In this document: positions 835-8,521 of the stretch, piece by piece
Numbering within the stretch: the stretch's first letter is position 1
Layout of the letters: each line of letters starts with the position of its first letter
From: a virus
Lineage: Duplodnaviria > Heunggongvirae > Uroviricota > Caudoviricetes
Direction: 5' to 3' (one strand)
Length of the DNA: 8,521 nt
Virus record (IMG/VR): IMGVR_UViG_2617270966_000007
Program-made: the position numbers and the translations under genes
Notes under the pieces: generated by a model
Told to the model about the DNA's origin: nothing
Seen by the model: the letters and a program-made list of their open reading frames with translations, nothing else
The model's database searches: none

Positions 835-990
835 TTACTCCTCAGGTTCGTAAGCTGTGAAGACAGCGACCTCCGTCTGGCCGGTTCGGATTCGTACCTC
901 GCAGAGGTCTTTCCTCGTTACCAGTGCCGTCACCATGACGGTTAAACAGATGACGATCAGGGCGATTAGCATCGCCTTTTGCTGCTTCAT
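835..990 (-). CDS. hok: Hok/Gef-family membrane toxin (type I toxin-antitoxin toxin), 51 aa, HokD/RelF-like
   Basis: Translation MKQQKAMLIALIVICLTVMVTALVTRKDLCEVRIRTGQTEVAVFTAYEPEE has the Hok signature (single transmembrane helix then LTRKDLCEVRIRTGQTEVAVF) and closely matches HokD as recalled. SD AAGGAG lies about 9 nt upstream of the ATG at 990-988. Confidence 0.9.
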   Translation of the reverse strand: MKQQKAMLIALIVICLTVMVTALVTRKDLCEVRIRTGQTEVAVFTAYEPEE

Positions 991-1047
991 AGCCTGCTTC
1001 TCCTTGCCTTTCGGCACGTAAGAGGCTAACCTACGTGTGTAGAGCAT
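835..1047 (-). CDS. Mok-like in-frame upstream extension of hok (70 codons)
   Basis: ORF-track frame begins MLYTRRLASYVPKGKEKQA and continues in frame into Hok. Chromosomal mok reading frames (for example MokC) are N-terminally extended, in-frame versions of hok. Whether this one is translated is unknown. Confidence 0.4.
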   Translation of the reverse strand: MLYTRRLASYVPKGKEKQAMKQQKAMLIALIVICLTVMVTALVTRKDLCEVRIRTGQTEVAVFTAYEPEE

Positions 1048-1470
1048 AGATATGGCCTCAGATTAATGTTAAGCGTCTTGCAGGACGCGTAATGTTAACT
1101 GGGGCTTTTCTCTATCTGCCTTTGGTGTTCATGCCTGAGACAGATAGCCTCAAGCACCCGCAGCCATTCTACTTAACTCCCGTCACCTCGCCAATATGAA
1201 ATCAATCAGAAAGGCGATCCATAAGAACAACAGCAAGGCAATAAATTGCCATTACAGCAGCAATAGCCAGCGCACATTTGAGAACCAGCACCACAACCTC
1301 CTGTATTGGACGTACACCAGTCCTGATAAATATGAGGCTGTCTCGTCAGTGATTCAATACAACTATTGGGTATAGTTTCTGTGATTTTGTTCTGTAGAAA
1401 TGGAACACAACAACCAGTCACCACCAGCACTTCTTTAAATACGCCAAGTCCGACGCAAGCTAACCTTCTA

Positions 1471-1554: not shown

Positions 1555-2199
1555 TTAACCACAGATGATATTGAAACGTTCTCCGGAAATCTTGACCATA
1601 ATGTCAGACAGCTCGCTGACGGCATGGGCTTCAGATGATCCCAGAGCGTCAGGCTGAACAGCTATTACCGAAGCTCCACTTGCCAGCCCTGCTTTTATAC
1701 CCGCAGATGCATCCTCAAATACCACGCATTCACCAGGCTCAAGGCCCAAAGCCAAAGCTGCTTTGATGTAACCCTCGGGACTTGGTTTTCCCGTCATTAC
1801 ATCTTCTGCACACACCATTACTATGGGTAAGGGGAGATTAGCCGCTTTCATCCTGTTTTCGGCAAGCATTCTGCCTGCAGAAGTAACAAGTGCCCAGCTA
1901 TCCGGTGGCAGTTTTGATAAGAGTGCAGCGGCCCCTTTTACTTCAGTAACGCCTTCTGTCGTGTTGATTTCAACCTCTTCGAGTGAGGCCGCGATTTTAT
2001 TGGTTTTCTCACCTGCACCAATAAAATGCGTCAGTGTATCAATCGTTTGCCGCCCGTGTGCGTAAGCAATCACAGCCTGAGTATCAAGACCGTATTCTGC
2101 ACAAAAATCTCTCCAGACGCTTTCCACTACGGCTGTTGAATCAACCAGCGTACCGTCCATATCGAATAAAAAACCCTTAGCGTTGAATATCATTGCCAT
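1555..2199 (-). CDS. HAD-superfamily hydrolase, subfamily IA (sugar-phosphatase / beta-phosphoglucomutase-like)
   Basis: HAD motif I FDMDGTLVDS near the N-terminus, motif III lysine in GKPSPEGY, motif IV FEDASAGIKAGLASG. The second ATG (2193) has better SD spacing (AGGA, about 6 nt) and may be the true start. Lies 24-30 nt downstream of the Nudix stop, so likely co-transcribed. Confidence 0.85.
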   Translation of the reverse strand: MAMIFNAKGFLFDMDGTLVDSTAVVESVWRDFCAEYGLDTQAVIAYAHGRQTIDTLTHFIGAGEKTNKIAASLEEVEINTTEGVTEVKGAAALLSKLPPDSWALVTSAGRMLAENRMKAANLPLPIVMVCAEDVMTGKPSPEGYIKAALALGLEPGECVVFEDASAGIKAGLASGASVIAVQPDALGSSEAHAVSELSDIMVKISGERFNIICG

Positions 2200-2222
2200 T
2201 CCTTAATGGTTGCAGAAGAAAG

Positions 2223-2861
2223 TTAATCAAACCATGTTTTTTCATCACCTTTCGCTACTCTCAGGCTGACAGCAATCTGCTCAGGCACAATTCTTGAAAG
2301 CGACAATTCAGGCAGGTCGTTGACATCAAAAAAATCAGCATCGAGTGACTCATGGCTGATTGACAGGCTGCCACCTACTTCTTCACAGAGAAAAATCAGC
2401 TTGTAAACATGCCAGGGTAAAGGCGGATGGCCGTGAAGATTACGATCCCAAACTCCCAATAGTTTAGTCACTCTGACTTTTAATCCGGTTTCTTCTTCGA
2501 CCTCTCGACGCACAGCTTCAGAAGGTGTATCTCCAACATCTGCCCATCCGCCAGGAAGACTCCATAATCCATCTGCAGCCTCTTTCACCATCAGAATACG
2601 ATTATTACGCAGGATAAACGCACGCACATCTGTTTTGGGCGTCGCGTAACCCGTTTCCGATACATGAAACAAATCATTGCGGCTAATATCAAACTGCGAA
2701 CTCAGCAGTCCAGCGGCAATTTCACGCAAGGCTTCATAGCGTTCCTTGTCAAAGACGTCTTTTGAATAGGTCAGGCCTGACTGCGCGAGGGCATTTAGTC
2801 TCTGGGCAACAAAAATAAGCTTTTCTTGGGTCAACACTTCAGACATGTTTTTCATCTTCAT
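2223..2861 (-). CDS. Nudix hydrolase with an N-terminal extension domain (ADP-ribose pyrophosphatase-like architecture)
   Basis: Nudix box GWADVGDTPSEAVRREVEEETGL (residues 105-127, plus 2481-2549) fits G-x5-(E/D)-x7-REVxEExGL. About 100 aa of N-terminal domain precede it. Start is ambiguous among ATGs at 2861, 2855 and 2846; none has a strong SD. Confidence 0.85.
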   Translation of the reverse strand: MKMKNMSEVLTQEKLIFVAQRLNALAQSGLTYSKDVFDKERYEALREIAAGLLSSQFDISRNDLFHVSETGYATPKTDVRAFILRNNRILMVKEAADGLWSLPGGWADVGDTPSEAVRREVEEETGLKVRVTKLLGVWDRNLHGHPPLPWHVYKLIFLCEEVGGSLSISHESLDADFFDVNDLPELSLSRIVPEQIAVSLRVAKGDEKTWFD

Positions 2862-4258: not shown

Positions 4259-5005
4259 TTACTTCACAACCCTCATATTGCTGACATTTGGACGCCAGCT
4301 ATCCCAGTTAAACGTCACCCATCGACCACCGTTCATGGTCATGCGGTCCATAATCCTCTCACCAAGAAGCGTACTCATTGCGGCATGATTCAGGTTTGTT
4401 AACATCCCGACACTGCACAGTGATGCTGTCCGGCGATCAATTATCTGGTGCAATACCACCTGCTCGTTTTTCGTCTCCCGCTGAACGCCTATTTCATCCA
4501 GGACCAGCAAATCAACCCCGCAAAGCTCCTGTAAAAATTTTTCCCCGGATTTGCCGTTGTCGTAGCTGTCATGCAACACGCTCATGACGTCAGACACGGT
4601 GACGATAATCACGCTGCGCCCCTTCACCATCAGCCGGTTGCCCATCGCCGCTGCAAGGTGATTTTTCCCGGTGCCGGTTTTACCGCTGAACACAAAATTC
4701 GTGCACCCGGTCATCAGTTCGTCAGCTATGGATTTGGCCTGGCTCAGCGCGTATTTTTGCCCGTCGTTCTGCACCTGATAATTTGCAAACGAGCATTTGC
4801 TGTGCAGAGGCTGGATGCCCGAACGATTCAGGATTTTTTCCACCCGCAACTGGCGATTCTGGCGGTTAATCTCCTCGCTGCGTTTTCGTCCTTCAGCAAG
4901 TTGCCATTCCCGCCACTCCTCCACCGTCCGGTACGGTGGAACCGACCCCTGTGGTGCAAGTCTGCGAATACGTTCAAGAACCCCAACTGCCGCAATGTTT
5001 TTCAT
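4259..5005 (-). CDS. ydaV: DnaC-like helicase loader / IstB-type AAA+ ATPase (phage replication protein, YdaV-like)
   Basis: P-loop FSGKTGTGKNHLAAAMG and Walker B DLLVLDEIG. Length 248 aa. Starts 7 nt after the O-like gene stop with a G-rich SD. Symbol assigned by synteny and length match to the Rac prophage ydaU-ydaV pair. Confidence 0.85.
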   Translation of the reverse strand: MKNIAAVGVLERIRRLAPQGSVPPYRTVEEWREWQLAEGRKRSEEINRQNRQLRVEKILNRSGIQPLHSKCSFANYQVQNDGQKYALSQAKSIADELMTGCTNFVFSGKTGTGKNHLAAAMGNRLMVKGRSVIIVTVSDVMSVLHDSYDNGKSGEKFLQELCGVDLLVLDEIGVQRETKNEQVVLHQIIDRRTASLCSVGMLTNLNHAAMSTLLGERIMDRMTMNGGRWVTFNWDSWRPNVSNMRVVK

Positions 5006-5011
5006 GACACG

Positions 5012-5974
5012 TCACCCCCTGAATCCCGGCGGTATTTCAGTGTCCGGTTCAGAAATGTGATTCACGCAACGCTGCGCAGGCGAACGCCCCAGGCGGATAA
5101 CCAGTTCATCCCATTTTTCCCGGAGTTTTGCCGGACTCATGATGTTTTTTACCCAGAACGAATCCCGCTGGAGACGCCCAAACATTTCACAAATTTGTCT
5201 GTGAGTTCTGCCATCCAGCATCCGCATTGTGCGAACGTCATTGGCCCATGCTGTCCAGTTGGGTTCTTTCGGTCTAGTGATCTCGCCATCATAGCTGGCC
5301 GCCTGCTCGTAAAGACTCACGATTCGTCCCCAGATCCACTGTGCGCACACCAAATCTTCCTGACTTCCCCACTGGCGTTTTTTCGCACTGAACACAACCG
5401 CGTCAGGGTGTCGGGTTAAAAAATCCTGTTCAGCCGTCTGCGGGTCCGGTTGCGAAGCGTCCGGACAAGAAGATCTTTTATCTGACGGTTCAGGTTTTAA
5501 TACTGACGGATCGGGGTCAATCATCGCCCCCCTAATCGGCAGTTTTTTATCAACAGTTGATCCATCAAAATTTGACGGGTCAACCGTTGAGGGGGCAAAA
5601 TTTGACGGGTCAACTGTTAACGGGTCATTTTTTGCCGGGCTAATTTTTCTTTTCGGTTTATATGACTCACGCGCCGCCGCCGCAGCTGCTTCGAGTTTTT
5701 CCACATTAAGCCGATAGATATTGCTTACATTACGCCCACCGACCTTACGCTCTTCCTTCGTCAGCCAGCCCTCTTTCGCCAGTTCTGCAATAGCCGATTT
5801 CACTGTGGATTCACTTCTTGCACCGATCTGACGCCGGATAGTTTCAATGGCAGGCCATGACACACCCTCGTCATTGCTGTAGTCTACAAGACGGGCCATA
5901 ACCGCCACCCTGGATAAGATCATGCCGGTGAAGGCGCACCCTTCCCAGACAAGACCATGAAGCTTGCTGCTCAT
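5012..5974 (-). CDS. Phage replication initiator (O-like / replisome organiser, YdaU-like) with N-terminal wHTH and an internal TVDPSNF repeat linker
   Basis: The ORF track starts at a GTG (5989); the first ATG is at 5974 (MSSKLHGLVWEG...) with a GGGGG SD. N-terminal HTH-like segment (VSWPAIETIRRQIGARSESTVKSAIAELAKEGWL). The central region encodes PLTVDPSNFAPSTVDPSNFDGSTVD from direct DNA repeats. Sits immediately upstream of the DnaC-like gene. Confidence 0.8.
   Translation of the reverse strand: MSSKLHGLVWEGCAFTGMILSRVAVMARLVDYSNDEGVSWPAIETIRRQIGARSESTVKSAIAELAKEGWLTKEERKVGGRNVSNIYRLNVEKLEAAAAAARESYKPKRKISPAKNDPLTVDPSNFAPSTVDPSNFDGSTVDKKLPIRGAMIDPDPSVLKPEPSDKRSSCPDASQPDPQTAEQDFLTRHPDAVVFSAKKRQWGSQEDLVCAQWIWGRIVSLYEQAASYDGEITRPKEPNWTAWANDVRTMRMLDGRTHRQICEMFGRLQRDSFWVKNIMSPAKLREKWDELVIRLGRSPAQRCVNHISEPDTEIPPGFRG
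5544..5621. repeat. Iteron-like direct repeats (30-bp period) with adjacent AT-rich stretch inside the O-like gene: putative replication origin
   Basis: CAAAATTTGACGGGTCAACCGTTGA (5566-5590) and CAAAATTTGACGGGTCAACTGTTAA (5596-5620), plus a partial third copy TCAACAGTTGA (5550-5560). Each contains a TCAAC-N-GTTGA inverted core. Followed by the AT-rich run cattttttgccgggctaatttttcttttcggtttatatga (5626-5665). Confidence 0.45.
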
Positions 5975-5996
5975 AAAACCCCCGAACACCGTGCTT

Positions 5997-6422
5997 TTAG
6001 TGCATCACCACAGCATTCCCTGCCGGGCCGCCGCGATTCATCTGGTCATACAAAACAACCGCTGACGCAACAAAATCGCCGACATCCTTCCCCAGCCGAT
6101 CCCGCCGTTCGACAATCTCCCGGTAATACTCAGAGCTGTGACTGCGCATACGGGCCACCAGCAGAGGCGGCATTGCCTTTTCGATCGCCGGTAACAGAGC
6201 CTGAATTTTTTCAACAGCATCAGGGGTGTCTTTATCCAGCCAACGGAAAATTTTCTGTGTATTACGGGCCAGGGCTTCCGGATGGCTGTCGTCGTACAGT
6301 TCAGGGAACGTCATCCCCAGTTCGAAATAAGTCCGGGCTATTTCAGCTGCAGGAACTTTCTCACCATCAGGGTATGCCCAAGCATTCATCGCCATGCGGA
6401 TGTGCTCATGTTTGATTTTCAT
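5997..6422 (-). CDS. ydaT: YdaT-like prophage protein (CII-analogous regulator / reported toxin family)
   Basis: 141 aa, N-terminus MKIKHEHI, located between the Cro-like gene and the replication genes as ydaT is in Rac. The start overlaps the upstream Cro-like gene by 17 nt. Family call rests on synteny, length and recalled N-terminal similarity. Confidence 0.65.
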   Translation of the reverse strand: MKIKHEHIRMAMNAWAYPDGEKVPAAEIARTYFELGMTFPELYDDSHPEALARNTQKIFRWLDKDTPDAVEKIQALLPAIEKAMPPLLVARMRSHSSEYYREIVERRDRLGKDVGDFVASAVVLYDQMNRGGPAGNAVVMH

Positions 6423-6729
6423 GAATCATTTGCCTCTTGATGCTTCGGGTATGATCGTTTTCGTCATTTGGTTGCTTCATCGACATATTCTGCGAATAAC
6501 ATGACGAGCGTCGTAAGTATGTCCAATCAACATCAGGACGAAGTTCTTCACACAGGACACCACCTTTTGTTGCTCGTTCAATCGCAGGACATCTCTCAGC
6601 AGGCAACTGACGTACACCTTTGATCCATTGATTTACGCTTGGAGGAGATACACCTAAAAGCCTAGCCATTGCTGATTGCCCACCGACAACAGCACAAGCT
6701 CGTTTGAATGAATAGTTATCTTTTTTCAT
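6406..6729 (-). CDS. Cro-like / YdaS-like HTH DNA-binding protein (first gene of the rightward early operon)
   Basis: ATG at 6729-6727 (MKKDNYSFKRACAVVGGQSAMARLLGVSPPSVNQWIKG...) with GGAG about 8 nt upstream; HTH in QSAMARLLGVSPPSVNQWI. Divergent from the repressor gene, downstream of the predicted PR. The ORF-track start at 6750 would lie upstream of the predicted transcription start. Confidence 0.75.
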   Translation of the reverse strand: MKKDNYSFKRACAVVGGQSAMARLLGVSPPSVNQWIKGVRQLPAERCPAIERATKGGVLCEELRPDVDWTYLRRSSCYSQNMSMKQPNDENDHTRSIKRQMIHENQT

Positions 6730-6756
6730 CGAATGAACTCCAAAAAACACGCAACA

Positions 6757-6824
6757 ATATTAGGCTTAGCCTAATGCAATTGTCAATAGGCTAAGCCTAA
6801 TCCATCGAGAGTAGGGATTGCCTA
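6757..6824. promoter_or_regulatory. OR-like operator cluster (three 13-bp operators) with divergent PR (minus strand) and candidate PRM (plus strand)
   Basis: Operators TAGGCTTAGCCTA (6761-6773), TAGGCTAAGCCTA (6787-6799), TAGGGATTGCCTA (6812-6824), centres 26 and 25 bp apart. PR on the minus strand: -35 TTGACA (6786-6781), 18-bp spacer, -10 TAATAT (6762-6757). Candidate PRM: -35 TTGCCT (6819-6824), -10 GACTAT (6842-6847), which would start transcription at about the repressor ATG. Confidence 0.6.
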
Positions 6825-6853: not shown

Positions 6854-7330
6854 ATGCTTAGTGGTAAAGACTTAGGCCGAGCGATAGAGCAGGCCATTAA
6901 CAAAAAAATTGCATCAGGAGCCGTCAAATCAAAGGCGGAAATCGCACGTCATTTCAAAGTCCAACCACCATCAATCCATGACTGGATTAAGAAAGGTTCG
7001 ATAAGTAAAGACAAACTTCCAGAACTATGGCGTTTCTTTTCTGATGTGGTTGGTCCAGAGCATTGGGGGCTTAACGAATACCCCATACCAACCCCATCCA
7101 CTTCAGATACAAAAAGTGAACTTTTAGACATAAACAGCCTTTATCAAGCCGCCTCTGATGAAAAAAGAGCAATTGTGGCTTTCCTCTTATCTGGAAATGC
7201 TACGGAGCCTAGTTGGGTTGATCATGACGTTCGCGCCTACATTGCCGCAATGGAAATGAAGGTAGCTAACTATCTGAAAAATCAAGAATCAAAACGGAAA
7301 AGCCAGAACATCACCAAGACAGGAACTTAA
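6854..7330 (+). CDS. CI-type prophage repressor (XRE-family HTH, 158 aa; RacR-like by position and length)
   Basis: N-terminal HTH (SKAEIARHFKVQPPSIHDWIKKG). Divergent from the Cro-like gene across the operator cluster, and flanked on both sides by the same 13-bp palindromic operators. No obvious S24 peptidase Ser/Lys domain in the short C-terminal part. Confidence 0.8.
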   Translation: MLSGKDLGRAIEQAINKKIASGAVKSKAEIARHFKVQPPSIHDWIKKGSISKDKLPELWRFFSDVVGPEHWGLNEYPIPTPSTSDTKSELLDINSLYQAASDEKRAIVAFLLSGNATEPSWVDHDVRAYIAAMEMKVANYLKNQESKRKSQNITKTGT

Positions 7331-8259: not shown

Positions 8260-8521
8260 GGTAGTGACTCCAACTTACTGATAGTGTTTTATGTTCAGAT
8301 AATGCCCGATGACCTTGTCATGCAGCTCCACCGATTTTGAGAACGACAGCGACTTCCGTCCCAGCCTTGCCAGATGTTGTCTCAGATTCAGATTATGTCG
8401 CTCAATGCGCTGAGTGTAACGCTTGCTGATAACGTGCAGCTTTCCCTTCAGGCGTGATTCATACAGCGGCCAGCCATCCGTCATCCATACCACGACCTCA
8501 AAGGCCGACAGCAGGCTCAGA
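8260..8521 (-). mobile_element. IS1 insertion sequence, partial (right end with terminal inverted repeat; continues beyond window)
   Basis: Terminal inverted repeat GGTAGTGACTCCAACTTACTGATAG starts at 8260 and resembles the IS1 IR as recalled. The interior encodes the InsB C-terminus on the minus strand. Confidence 0.9.
8275..8521 (-). CDS. insB: IS1 transposase InsB, C-terminal part (CDS continues beyond the window edge)
   Basis: Translation ...[71 protein letters not shown] matches the IS1 InsB C-terminus as recalled. The stop codon lies inside the terminal IR. Confidence 0.9.

Follow-up and report, generated by a model that had tools for sequence, protein, structure and literature searches.

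In lambdoid bacteriophages, distantly related origin-binding proteins each have iterons of their own, located inside their own coding regions (PMC8022706; see also PMC7466680). The annotated iterons of phage lambda (J02459) lie at 39034–39118, in gene O, and are followed by an AT-rich tract, and in phi80 (JX871397) the origin lies in gene 15, with four annotated gp15 sites at a period of 21 nt. Phage L has six imprecise repeats of 11 bp (PMC8022706), and synonymous iteron mutations abolished transformation by a plasmid derived from P27, a lambda-like Stx phage (PMC7466680). This 'P27' has an O protein of the lambda type and is not phiP27 (NC_003356), so that its binding data are not applicable to the initiator family discussed here. 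We have analysed a stretch of 8521 nucleotides (hereafter the window) from the virus record IMGVR_UViG_2617270966_000007 (Caudoviricetes), which represents the immunity and replication region of a lambdoid, Rac-like prophage of Escherichia coli. Its initiator gene (5012–5989, minus strand) contains a phased array of short dyads, and we consider it very likely that the segment 5446–5643 is the replication origin of the prophage, with the layout of the lambda origin (oriLambda) and a different DNA-binding module in the initiator.

This reading is based on repeats that are not due to chance, on their position in an interdomain linker, on constraint at the DNA level, on covariation of the sites with the N-terminal domain of the initiator, on copy-number changes in steps of 15 nt, and on the modular exchange of the segment. 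An earlier note, made from the window alone, had placed a putative origin at 5544–5665 of the same gene. Its extent should be widened to about 5446–5643, and the probable unwinding tract is on the side of the repeats opposite to the one that had been proposed. A lambda-style arrangement in another initiator family is what one would expect, and conceptually it bears out the lambdoid rule without extending it.

Comparison with described lambdoid origins

The array and the segment that follows it are colinear with the annotated iterons of lambda and phi80, just before a homologous C-terminal domain. The lambda-like iterons-in-O arrangement claimed earlier is thus supported, with repeats where both phages carry annotated iterons and with codons that show constraint on the DNA. 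As in oriLambda, the putative origin lies in the initiator gene, in the linker between a predicted DNA-binding N-terminal domain and a C-terminal domain that would recruit the helicase loader, and several dyad-symmetric sites come before the least stable tract of the gene, which lies on their C-terminal side. Residues 158–305 of the initiator align with residues 145–277 of lambda O at 35% identity (BLASTP, E = 2e-26). The N-terminal domain, on the other hand, matches HTH_36 and not Phage_rep_O; 12-bp dyads on a 15-bp lattice stand in place of the four 18-bp annotated iterons of lambda, whose starts are 20–24 bp apart; the unwinding candidate is less AT-rich than that of lambda (68% vs 77.5%) and is rich in GATC; and the loader is of the DnaC/IstB type, whereas that of lambda is P.

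The layout also resembles that of phi80, whose gp15 is 36% identical to residues 188–309 of the initiator (E = 4e-26) and whose iterons likewise encode a peptide repeat of the linker (GRKFPKT/GKSFPKS). In phi80, the iterons are followed by an A-rich tract ending in AAAAGATCTTC, and this sequence also stands at the corresponding position of the window. The N-terminal domain, the iteron sequence and the period differ (21 nt in phi80, 15 nt in the window), as does the partner, which is the P-like gp14 in phi80 and a DnaC-like protein in the window. The in-gene iterons of gene 18 in P22 and in phage L serve another initiator family and have another repeat sequence, and the partner in those phages is a DnaB-type helicase (gp12).

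The gene order of the window (racR, a ydaS-like gene, a ydaT-like gene, the initiator gene and a DnaC-like ydaV) is that of the ydaU-ydaV region of the K-12 Rac prophage, the oriJ replicon, and the C-terminal tail PDxxIPPGFRG is common to the window initiator and YdaU. YdaU is, by contrast, a DUF1376 protein with no detectable similarity to the initiator beyond this tail, and its repeats differ; we therefore rejected it as an initiator homologue. Within the K-12 ydaU gene (L002), repeats similar to AACAGATGTTCAA are clustered mid-gene at 5472–5578, some in either orientation; they are candidates for the iterons of oriJ, the Rac origin.

A phased array of dyads in the initiator gene

The repeats noted earlier are confirmed. 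A 19-mer, CAAAATTTGACGGGTCAAC, is found without mismatch at 5566 and 5596 (plus strand), and the inverted motif TCAAC-N-GTTGA at 5550, at 5580 and, in degenerate form (TCAACTGTTAA), at 5610. They had been described as 25-nt direct repeats with a period of 30 bp; the repeats stand but the period does not, as a 15-nt lattice underlies it, with five in-register copies found by repeat search and half-sites alternating as TTGA-N4-TCAA-N3. The iteron array (5542–5643) consists of TTGA-N4-TCAA dyads of 12 bp in a strict lattice of 15 bp, and encodes NDPLTVDPSNFAPSTVDPSNFDGSTVD. A pattern scan places exact dyads at 5557, 5572 and 5602 and a one-mismatch dyad at 5587, and direct reading adds the degenerate lattice positions 5617 (two mismatches) and 5542 and 5632 (half-sites, three mismatches each). 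The strong 30-nt appearance is partly allele-specific, since the window's version, AATTTTGCCCCC, is unique among 83 close relatives, in which AATATTGACCCC is the common version.

The motif TCAAC-N-GTTGA, which the earlier note took as the core of each repeat, does not keep that role: the dyad that is constant across species, taking flanks and spacer as a whole, is TTGA-N4-TCAA, and the centre of TCAAC-N-GTTGA is the variable N3 spacer. As for the putative binding unit, the conserved and flippable N4 spacer favours the 12-mer TTGA-N4-TCAA over TCAA-N3-TTGA. Each unit corresponds to five codons of the minus strand, NDPLT-VDPSN-FAPST-VDPSN-FDGST-VD, so that the repeats do encode the TVDPS/NFDPS linker, in agreement with the TVDPSNF linker repeats described before.

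Three exact dyads fall within 60 bp; among 5000 shuffles, not one had as many as two so close together (mean of 0.13 exact sites per shuffled window). Over the whole window, the number of TTGA-N4-TCAA matches with at most one mismatch is at the chance level (6 found vs 5.25 expected), so that the significance resides only in their clustering and phasing. The same scan finds two isolated matches outside the array, at 6570 and 7274. Folding of the region as single-stranded DNA gives z = −3.6, a value that restates the dyads.

We rejected a plasmid-type iteron origin (RepA, pi or TrfA type, non-coding and beside DnaA boxes): the sites lie in coding sequence, and the DnaA-box-like matches near the array (5547 and 5697) both have one mismatch, there being 10 such matches in the window without enrichment. 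No consensus for the integration host factor was found near the array.

Constraint on the DNA and on the protein

The comparison set consisted of 52 distinct genes that share the N-terminal domain (N-domain), from many enterobacterial genera. They were drawn from genome contigs (one genome per species), exact-protein look-ups and E. coli genomes; a scan of viral contigs gave near-identical E. coli copies only, which were used for polymorphism and not for diversity. The lineage of the window (lineage A) comprises 15 genes from at least eight genera, all sharing the lattice, with 2–10 detected sites per locus. An array of five-codon units follows the N-domain in 52 of the 52 genes. The repeats are thus not missing from initiators with the same N-domain; their absence there was what the earlier note had named as speaking against it.

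Over the 52 loci, the mean pairwise identity of synonymous codons is 0.81 in the linker vs 0.44 in the N-domain and 0.51 in the C-terminal domain (Mann–Whitney, p = 9e-20). In lineage A, values above 0.7 extend from about 5644 to about 5446, the highest (0.85–0.95) lying between 5554 and 5461, and within the array amino-acid identity (0.40–0.48) is lower than nucleotide identity (0.63–0.71). Codon choice is nearly invariant at given positions of the unit. Among 41 species-level loci, the first Ser is encoded by TCT in 126 of 137 cases (50 of the 734 Ser codons elsewhere in the same genes), the second by TCA in 147 of 169 (98 of 734 elsewhere), and Lys by AAA in all 117 cases (280 of 488 elsewhere).

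Where the peptide does change, it does so in ways that preserve the dyad. The Ser position varies between Ser, Pro and Leu through TCA, CCA and TTA, and the middle codon is of the form nCn (Ala, Pro or Thr). The spacer also flips from CCCC to GGGG, which replaces Asp-Pro-Ser (GAC CCC TCA) by Glu-Gly-Ser (GAG GGG TCA) or the reverse and keeps TTGA-N4-TCAA; the 12-mer formed by the DPS units, TTGACCCCTCAA, is the reverse complement of that formed by the EGS units, TTGAGGGGTCAA. As a pattern of substitution, the fixed codon choice, the high synonymous identity of the linker and the retention of the dyad through amino-acid changes show selection acting on the DNA, not on the protein, in the array. 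An overlapping gene or a structured RNA was rejected as the cause of this constraint: the constrained region contains no overlapping open reading frame (ORF) of more than 30 codons and no Rfam family that would explain it, the sole Rfam match in the window being a sok RNA at 985–1159.

Covariation of sites with the N-terminal domain and modular exchange

Within a locus, exact TGA-N4-TCA sites keep a single 15-nt phase, and this holds for nearly all 52 loci. N-domains with a helix of the type GA(K/R)SxxTVxxAI are accompanied by sites of the form TTGA-CCCN/GGGG-TCAA, and those with GAGxSTVRTAI by CTGA-yrCr-TCAA; by this comparison, the site sequence covaries with the N-domain lineage, two lineages having two site types. 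The number of units changes in steps of five amino acids (15 nt), giving proteins of 305, 310, 315 and 320 residues.

The N-domain, the array and the segment after it move together, whereas the C-terminal domain and tail are exchanged, the exchange boundary being the motif SCPDASQPD just downstream. Some relatives pair the initiator gene with lambda-P-type loaders. Other types of N-domain, joined to the same O-like C-terminal domain, have, immediately ahead of the SxPxASQPD junction, unrelated repeats of their own in both peptide and DNA, and the rule of an in-gene origin seems to be general across such mosaics. Examples were seen at loci L011, L013, L015, L026, L028 and L030, with motifs such as AESRNxxREVAEPI (twice) or repeated GSK and TENTTEITTEN. 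Three contigs labelled as a Bacillota metagenome-assembled genome (MAG; L012), a Veillonella parvula MAG (L015) and Vagococcus sp. (L046) carry initiator genes of the enterobacterial type; these labels are probably due to mis-binning or contamination in the assemblies.

A candidate unwinding tract next to the array

The strongest constraint at the DNA level is found in the segment that follows the array in the coding direction (5446–5541; synonymous identity of 0.85–0.95), which aligns with the AT-rich and palindrome region of lambda. It contains two copies of the motif GAyCCGTCAG (CTGACGG on the plus strand, at 5482 and 5503), which resembles the right half of the iteron; the copies are 18, 21 or 24 nt apart, and both are present in 38 of the 52 loci. 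GATC sites are also concentrated there: 47 of the 52 loci have two to three per 78 nt, whereas 0.29 would be expected from the rest of the same genes. The window has them at 5472 and 5509. At the codon GAA (5489–5491, plus strand; position 5491), the window and a few relatives have GAACCGTCAG (Glu) and most E. coli copies GATCCGTCAG (Asp); with GAACCGTCAG instead of GATCCGTCAG, the window allele lacks one conserved GATC site of the segment.

The least stable 40 nt beside the array, 5467–5506 (68% AT), lie in this segment and stand out with z = 2.1 against the window and z = 2.7 against the gene. In 46 of the 52 loci, the segment on the C-terminal side of the array, from DPDPS/GGDPS onwards, holds the least stable 40-mer of the gene (z of about 3, 65–75% AT). 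The same measure picks the AT-rich tract of lambda (z = 3.0, 77.5% AT) and, in phi80, a tract (z = 2.7, 67.5% AT) that adjoins the last of the annotated gp15 sites on the C-terminal side. On these grounds, 5467–5506 is our candidate for the DNA-unwinding element. A search for oriC-like 13-mers (GATCTNTTNTTTT repeats) gave one match with two mismatches at 5472–5484 (GATCTTTTATCTG) and did not stand out from chance, the window having 2 such matches vs 3.4 expected.

Domain organization of the initiator

The initiator is predicted as an ORF of 325 codons with a GTG start; its RefSeq relatives start at the ATG at 5974, which gives 320 residues. The description of the gene as O-like, made before any database search, proves to be correct: its C-terminal domain is similar to lambda O and to gp15 of phi80, and the gene has an end-to-end match to PHROG 391 ('replication initiation O-like'; E = 1.4e-114) and a further match to PHROG 277, which has the same label.

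Residues 8–110 (5660–5968, minus strand) form a predicted winged-helix DNA-binding domain, modelled by AlphaFold as a helix bundle with a beta-hairpin wing (AF2 pLDDT 74–87). Its only Pfam match is HTH_36, at 25.8 bits for a cutoff of 25, with DnaD_N below threshold and no Phage_rep_O domain at the N terminus. In protein comparisons, neither lambda O nor phi80 gp15 shows similarity to this part; a sequence search of solved structures finds no homologue of the initiator, and Foldseek gives a weak resemblance to winged helices of the MarR/PadR type, all matches being generic winged helices with E of about 0.01. We infer that this domain reads the iterons. Residues 114–181 (5447–5650) are a predicted disordered linker (pLDDT < 50) that covers the repeat array and about 100 nt downstream, and thus coincides with the zone of DNA-level constraint. 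Residues 183–300 (5090–5443) make up the C-terminal domain of the lambda O/phi80 gp15 type (C-domain; BLASTP), which would recruit the loader.

The last 10 or so residues (5015–5050) appear to track the partner gene. Tails of the GWEDVL/AWENTL type (L158, L159 and L161) and a GVEDKL... tail (L160) are followed by a Phage_lambda_P gene, and tails of the PPGFRG type precede a DnaC-like gene in the window and in K-12 (ydaU-ydaV); in L157 and L162 they come without any adjacent loader, the next gene being PerC-like. The tail is thus a candidate partner-specifying peptide. A lambda-P-type loader gene directly downstream, seen in the relatives with GWEDVL-type tails, is replaced in the window by a DnaC/IstB-like one.

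Proposed mechanism and alternative readings

The mechanism that we propose is drawn by analogy with lambda, for features that are in part established knowledge. The others were taken from PMC7466680. The winged-helix N-domain would bind, probably as dimers, four to six TTGA-N4-TCAA dyads, one per 15 bp (5542–5643), to form a nucleoprotein complex resembling the O-some. This complex may destabilize the adjoining GATC-rich tract of low stability (about 5467–5506), with its two GAyCCGTCAG motifs that resemble half-sites. The lambda-O-type C-domain would then recruit the DnaC-like loader encoded by the next gene, leading to the loading of host DnaB, and transcription from a pR-like promoter candidate (see below) would cross the origin, as in lambda.

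Several observations weigh against this proposal. The 15-bp spacing puts successive sites on different faces of the helix, unlike the roughly two-turn spacing of lambda, and the complex may therefore be built differently. The third site of the window has a mismatch in its core (TTGC). The tract 5467–5506 has just 68% AT, compared with 77.5% in lambda, and within the window's own gene it ties with a stretch of the N-domain. Rare E. coli alleles with one repeat unit or none (P0103–P0105) indicate that the protein can exist without the array, although these may come from decayed prophages. The high DNA identity across species could partly result from recent exchange of the module rather than from purifying selection. 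A putative IS1 fragment at 8275–8493 suggests that the prophage may be defective, and its origin possibly no longer fires in this strain. Finally, our literature search found no paper on binding, footprinting or origin function for this initiator family. With regard to the rare alleles, P0103, P0104, P0105 and P0021 have one unit or none, or lack the segment after the array; they are probably products of deletion between repeats in decaying prophages.

In a variant that we consider rather unlikely, the origin would have an architecture distinct from the lambda O-some. Dimers of the winged helix on a 15-bp lattice, that is, about 1.4 helical turns, would form a helical filament; flipped sites, with CCCC or GGGG spacers, would still be functional; and opening would take place at the conserved GATC-dense tract with its two GAyCCGTCAG half-sites 18–24 nt apart. 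Because this tract is common to lineages with different iterons and C-domains, it may correspond to a common step, for instance control by Dam/SeqA or capture of a single strand by the initiator. If true, such a step would not yet have been described for lambdoid origins.

It is unlikely that the lattice is genuine protein-binding DNA with another role (an autoregulatory operator or roadblock, a target for incompatibility or exclusion, or a crossover site), the origin being elsewhere. Iterons of plasmids do serve in copy control as well, and the C-domain exchange boundary lies just downstream. A weak promoter-like match on the plus strand (5572–5601) overlaps the array, but such matches are at the chance level in the window (2 found vs 1.8 expected). 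This possibility also has to contend with the colinearity of the segment with two phages whose records annotate initiator-binding iterons there, with an adjoining tract that ranks as least stable in 46 of the 52 genes, and with the window itself, where the dyad scan reveals no other iteron cluster.

We think it quite improbable that the layout of the earlier note is the right one, with iterons at 5544–5625 and unwinding in the AT-rich run that it saw at 5626–5665, on the N-terminal side. The run is present but modest: it has 68% AT over 40 nt (z = 1.7, rank 431 of 8482 windows), with T-tracts at 5628, 5644 and 5650, and encodes the Lys-rich peptide YKPKRKISPAK. One close relative (L164) does have the least stable 40-mer of its gene on the N-terminal side. 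As an unwinding element, the run is disfavoured by its position and its weak conservation. It lies 5′ of the array in the coding direction, opposite to lambda and phi80, whose AT-rich tracts are on the C-terminal side; its synonymous identity is 0.45–0.69; and the equivalent run is not AT-rich in the Edwardsiella and Salmonella relatives, nor in lineage B, from which it is absent. The run probably includes a degenerate site of the lattice and is not the main unwinding candidate, 5467–5506 being the likelier element.

That the repeats are a low-complexity, slippage-prone linker (DPSNF/DPSTV) without any function as DNA, kept regular by tandem duplication and gene conversion, would agree with the predicted disorder of the segment, the unit-step variation in copy number, the rare alleles without array and the frequency of such linkers in general, but this explanation is highly improbable in view of position-specific codons fixed across genera whose synonymous sites are otherwise randomized, array amino acids less conserved than the nucleotides, Ser/Pro/Leu and DP/EG replacements that keep the dyad, and a non-repetitive post-array segment that is the most constrained part.

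If 5446–5643 is the origin, as we favour, its coordinates can help to type replicons, to predict which co-resident prophages are incompatible, to interpret marker frequencies after induction and to build phage-derived vectors. The initiator allele is widespread in E. coli, and we found no paper mapping an origin for its family. The array also provides a clean natural case of coding-sequence nucleotides being more constrained than the amino acids that they encode, and a useful positive control for searches of embedded DNA elements by synonymous-site conservation.

Prophage setting and neighbouring genes

Next to the initiator gene, the ORF list, Pfam and PHROG identify a YdaT/CII-like gene (5997–6422, minus strand), a ydaS/Cro-like gene (6406–6750, minus strand) and racR (6854–7330, plus strand). 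The interval between racR and the cro-like gene contains a pR-like promoter candidate (6757–6786, minus strand; TTGACA-18-TAATAT), a consensus match at 10 of 12 positions, which would transcribe the cro-like, cII/YdaT-like and initiator genes and hence run across the origin. Directly downstream of the initiator gene is the DnaC/IstB-like helicase-loader gene (ydaV-like; 4259–5005, minus strand; Pfam IstB_IS21, E = 7e-19; PHROG 50 'DnaC-like helicase loader', E = 8e-82), followed by DUF1627 and DUF977 (Ren-like) genes.

A copy of the initiator gene that is 99.7% identical to that of the window is found in an E. coli chromosome, beside a tyrosine integrase gene and yccA; its RefSeq label is only 'helix-turn-helix domain-containing protein'. 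Of 5426 complete E. coli genomes, 1514 have a copy with 80% or more of the gene. Relatives occur in Shigella phages of the SfII/SfIV type, in phiP27 and in Klebsiella phages, again with generic labels (replication protein or helix-turn-helix).

A 72-aa ORF at 8275–8493 (minus strand) resembles the C-terminal part of the InsB protein of IS1; if it is indeed one, a copy of IS1 abuts the left-operon side of the prophage, which may then be disrupted. At the other end of the window, a toxin–antitoxin locus of the hok/sok type (835–1159, minus strand) combines a Hok-like ORF (835–1047) with the sok antitoxin RNA (985–1159, 114.7 bits in Rfam). Between this locus and the replication genes, genes for a hydrolase of the HAD superfamily and a NUDIX hydrolase occupy 1555–2861 (minus strand), where the closest relative (L001) has QueH and a restriction-modification pair of the NgoMIV type; this slot is one of variable cargo.

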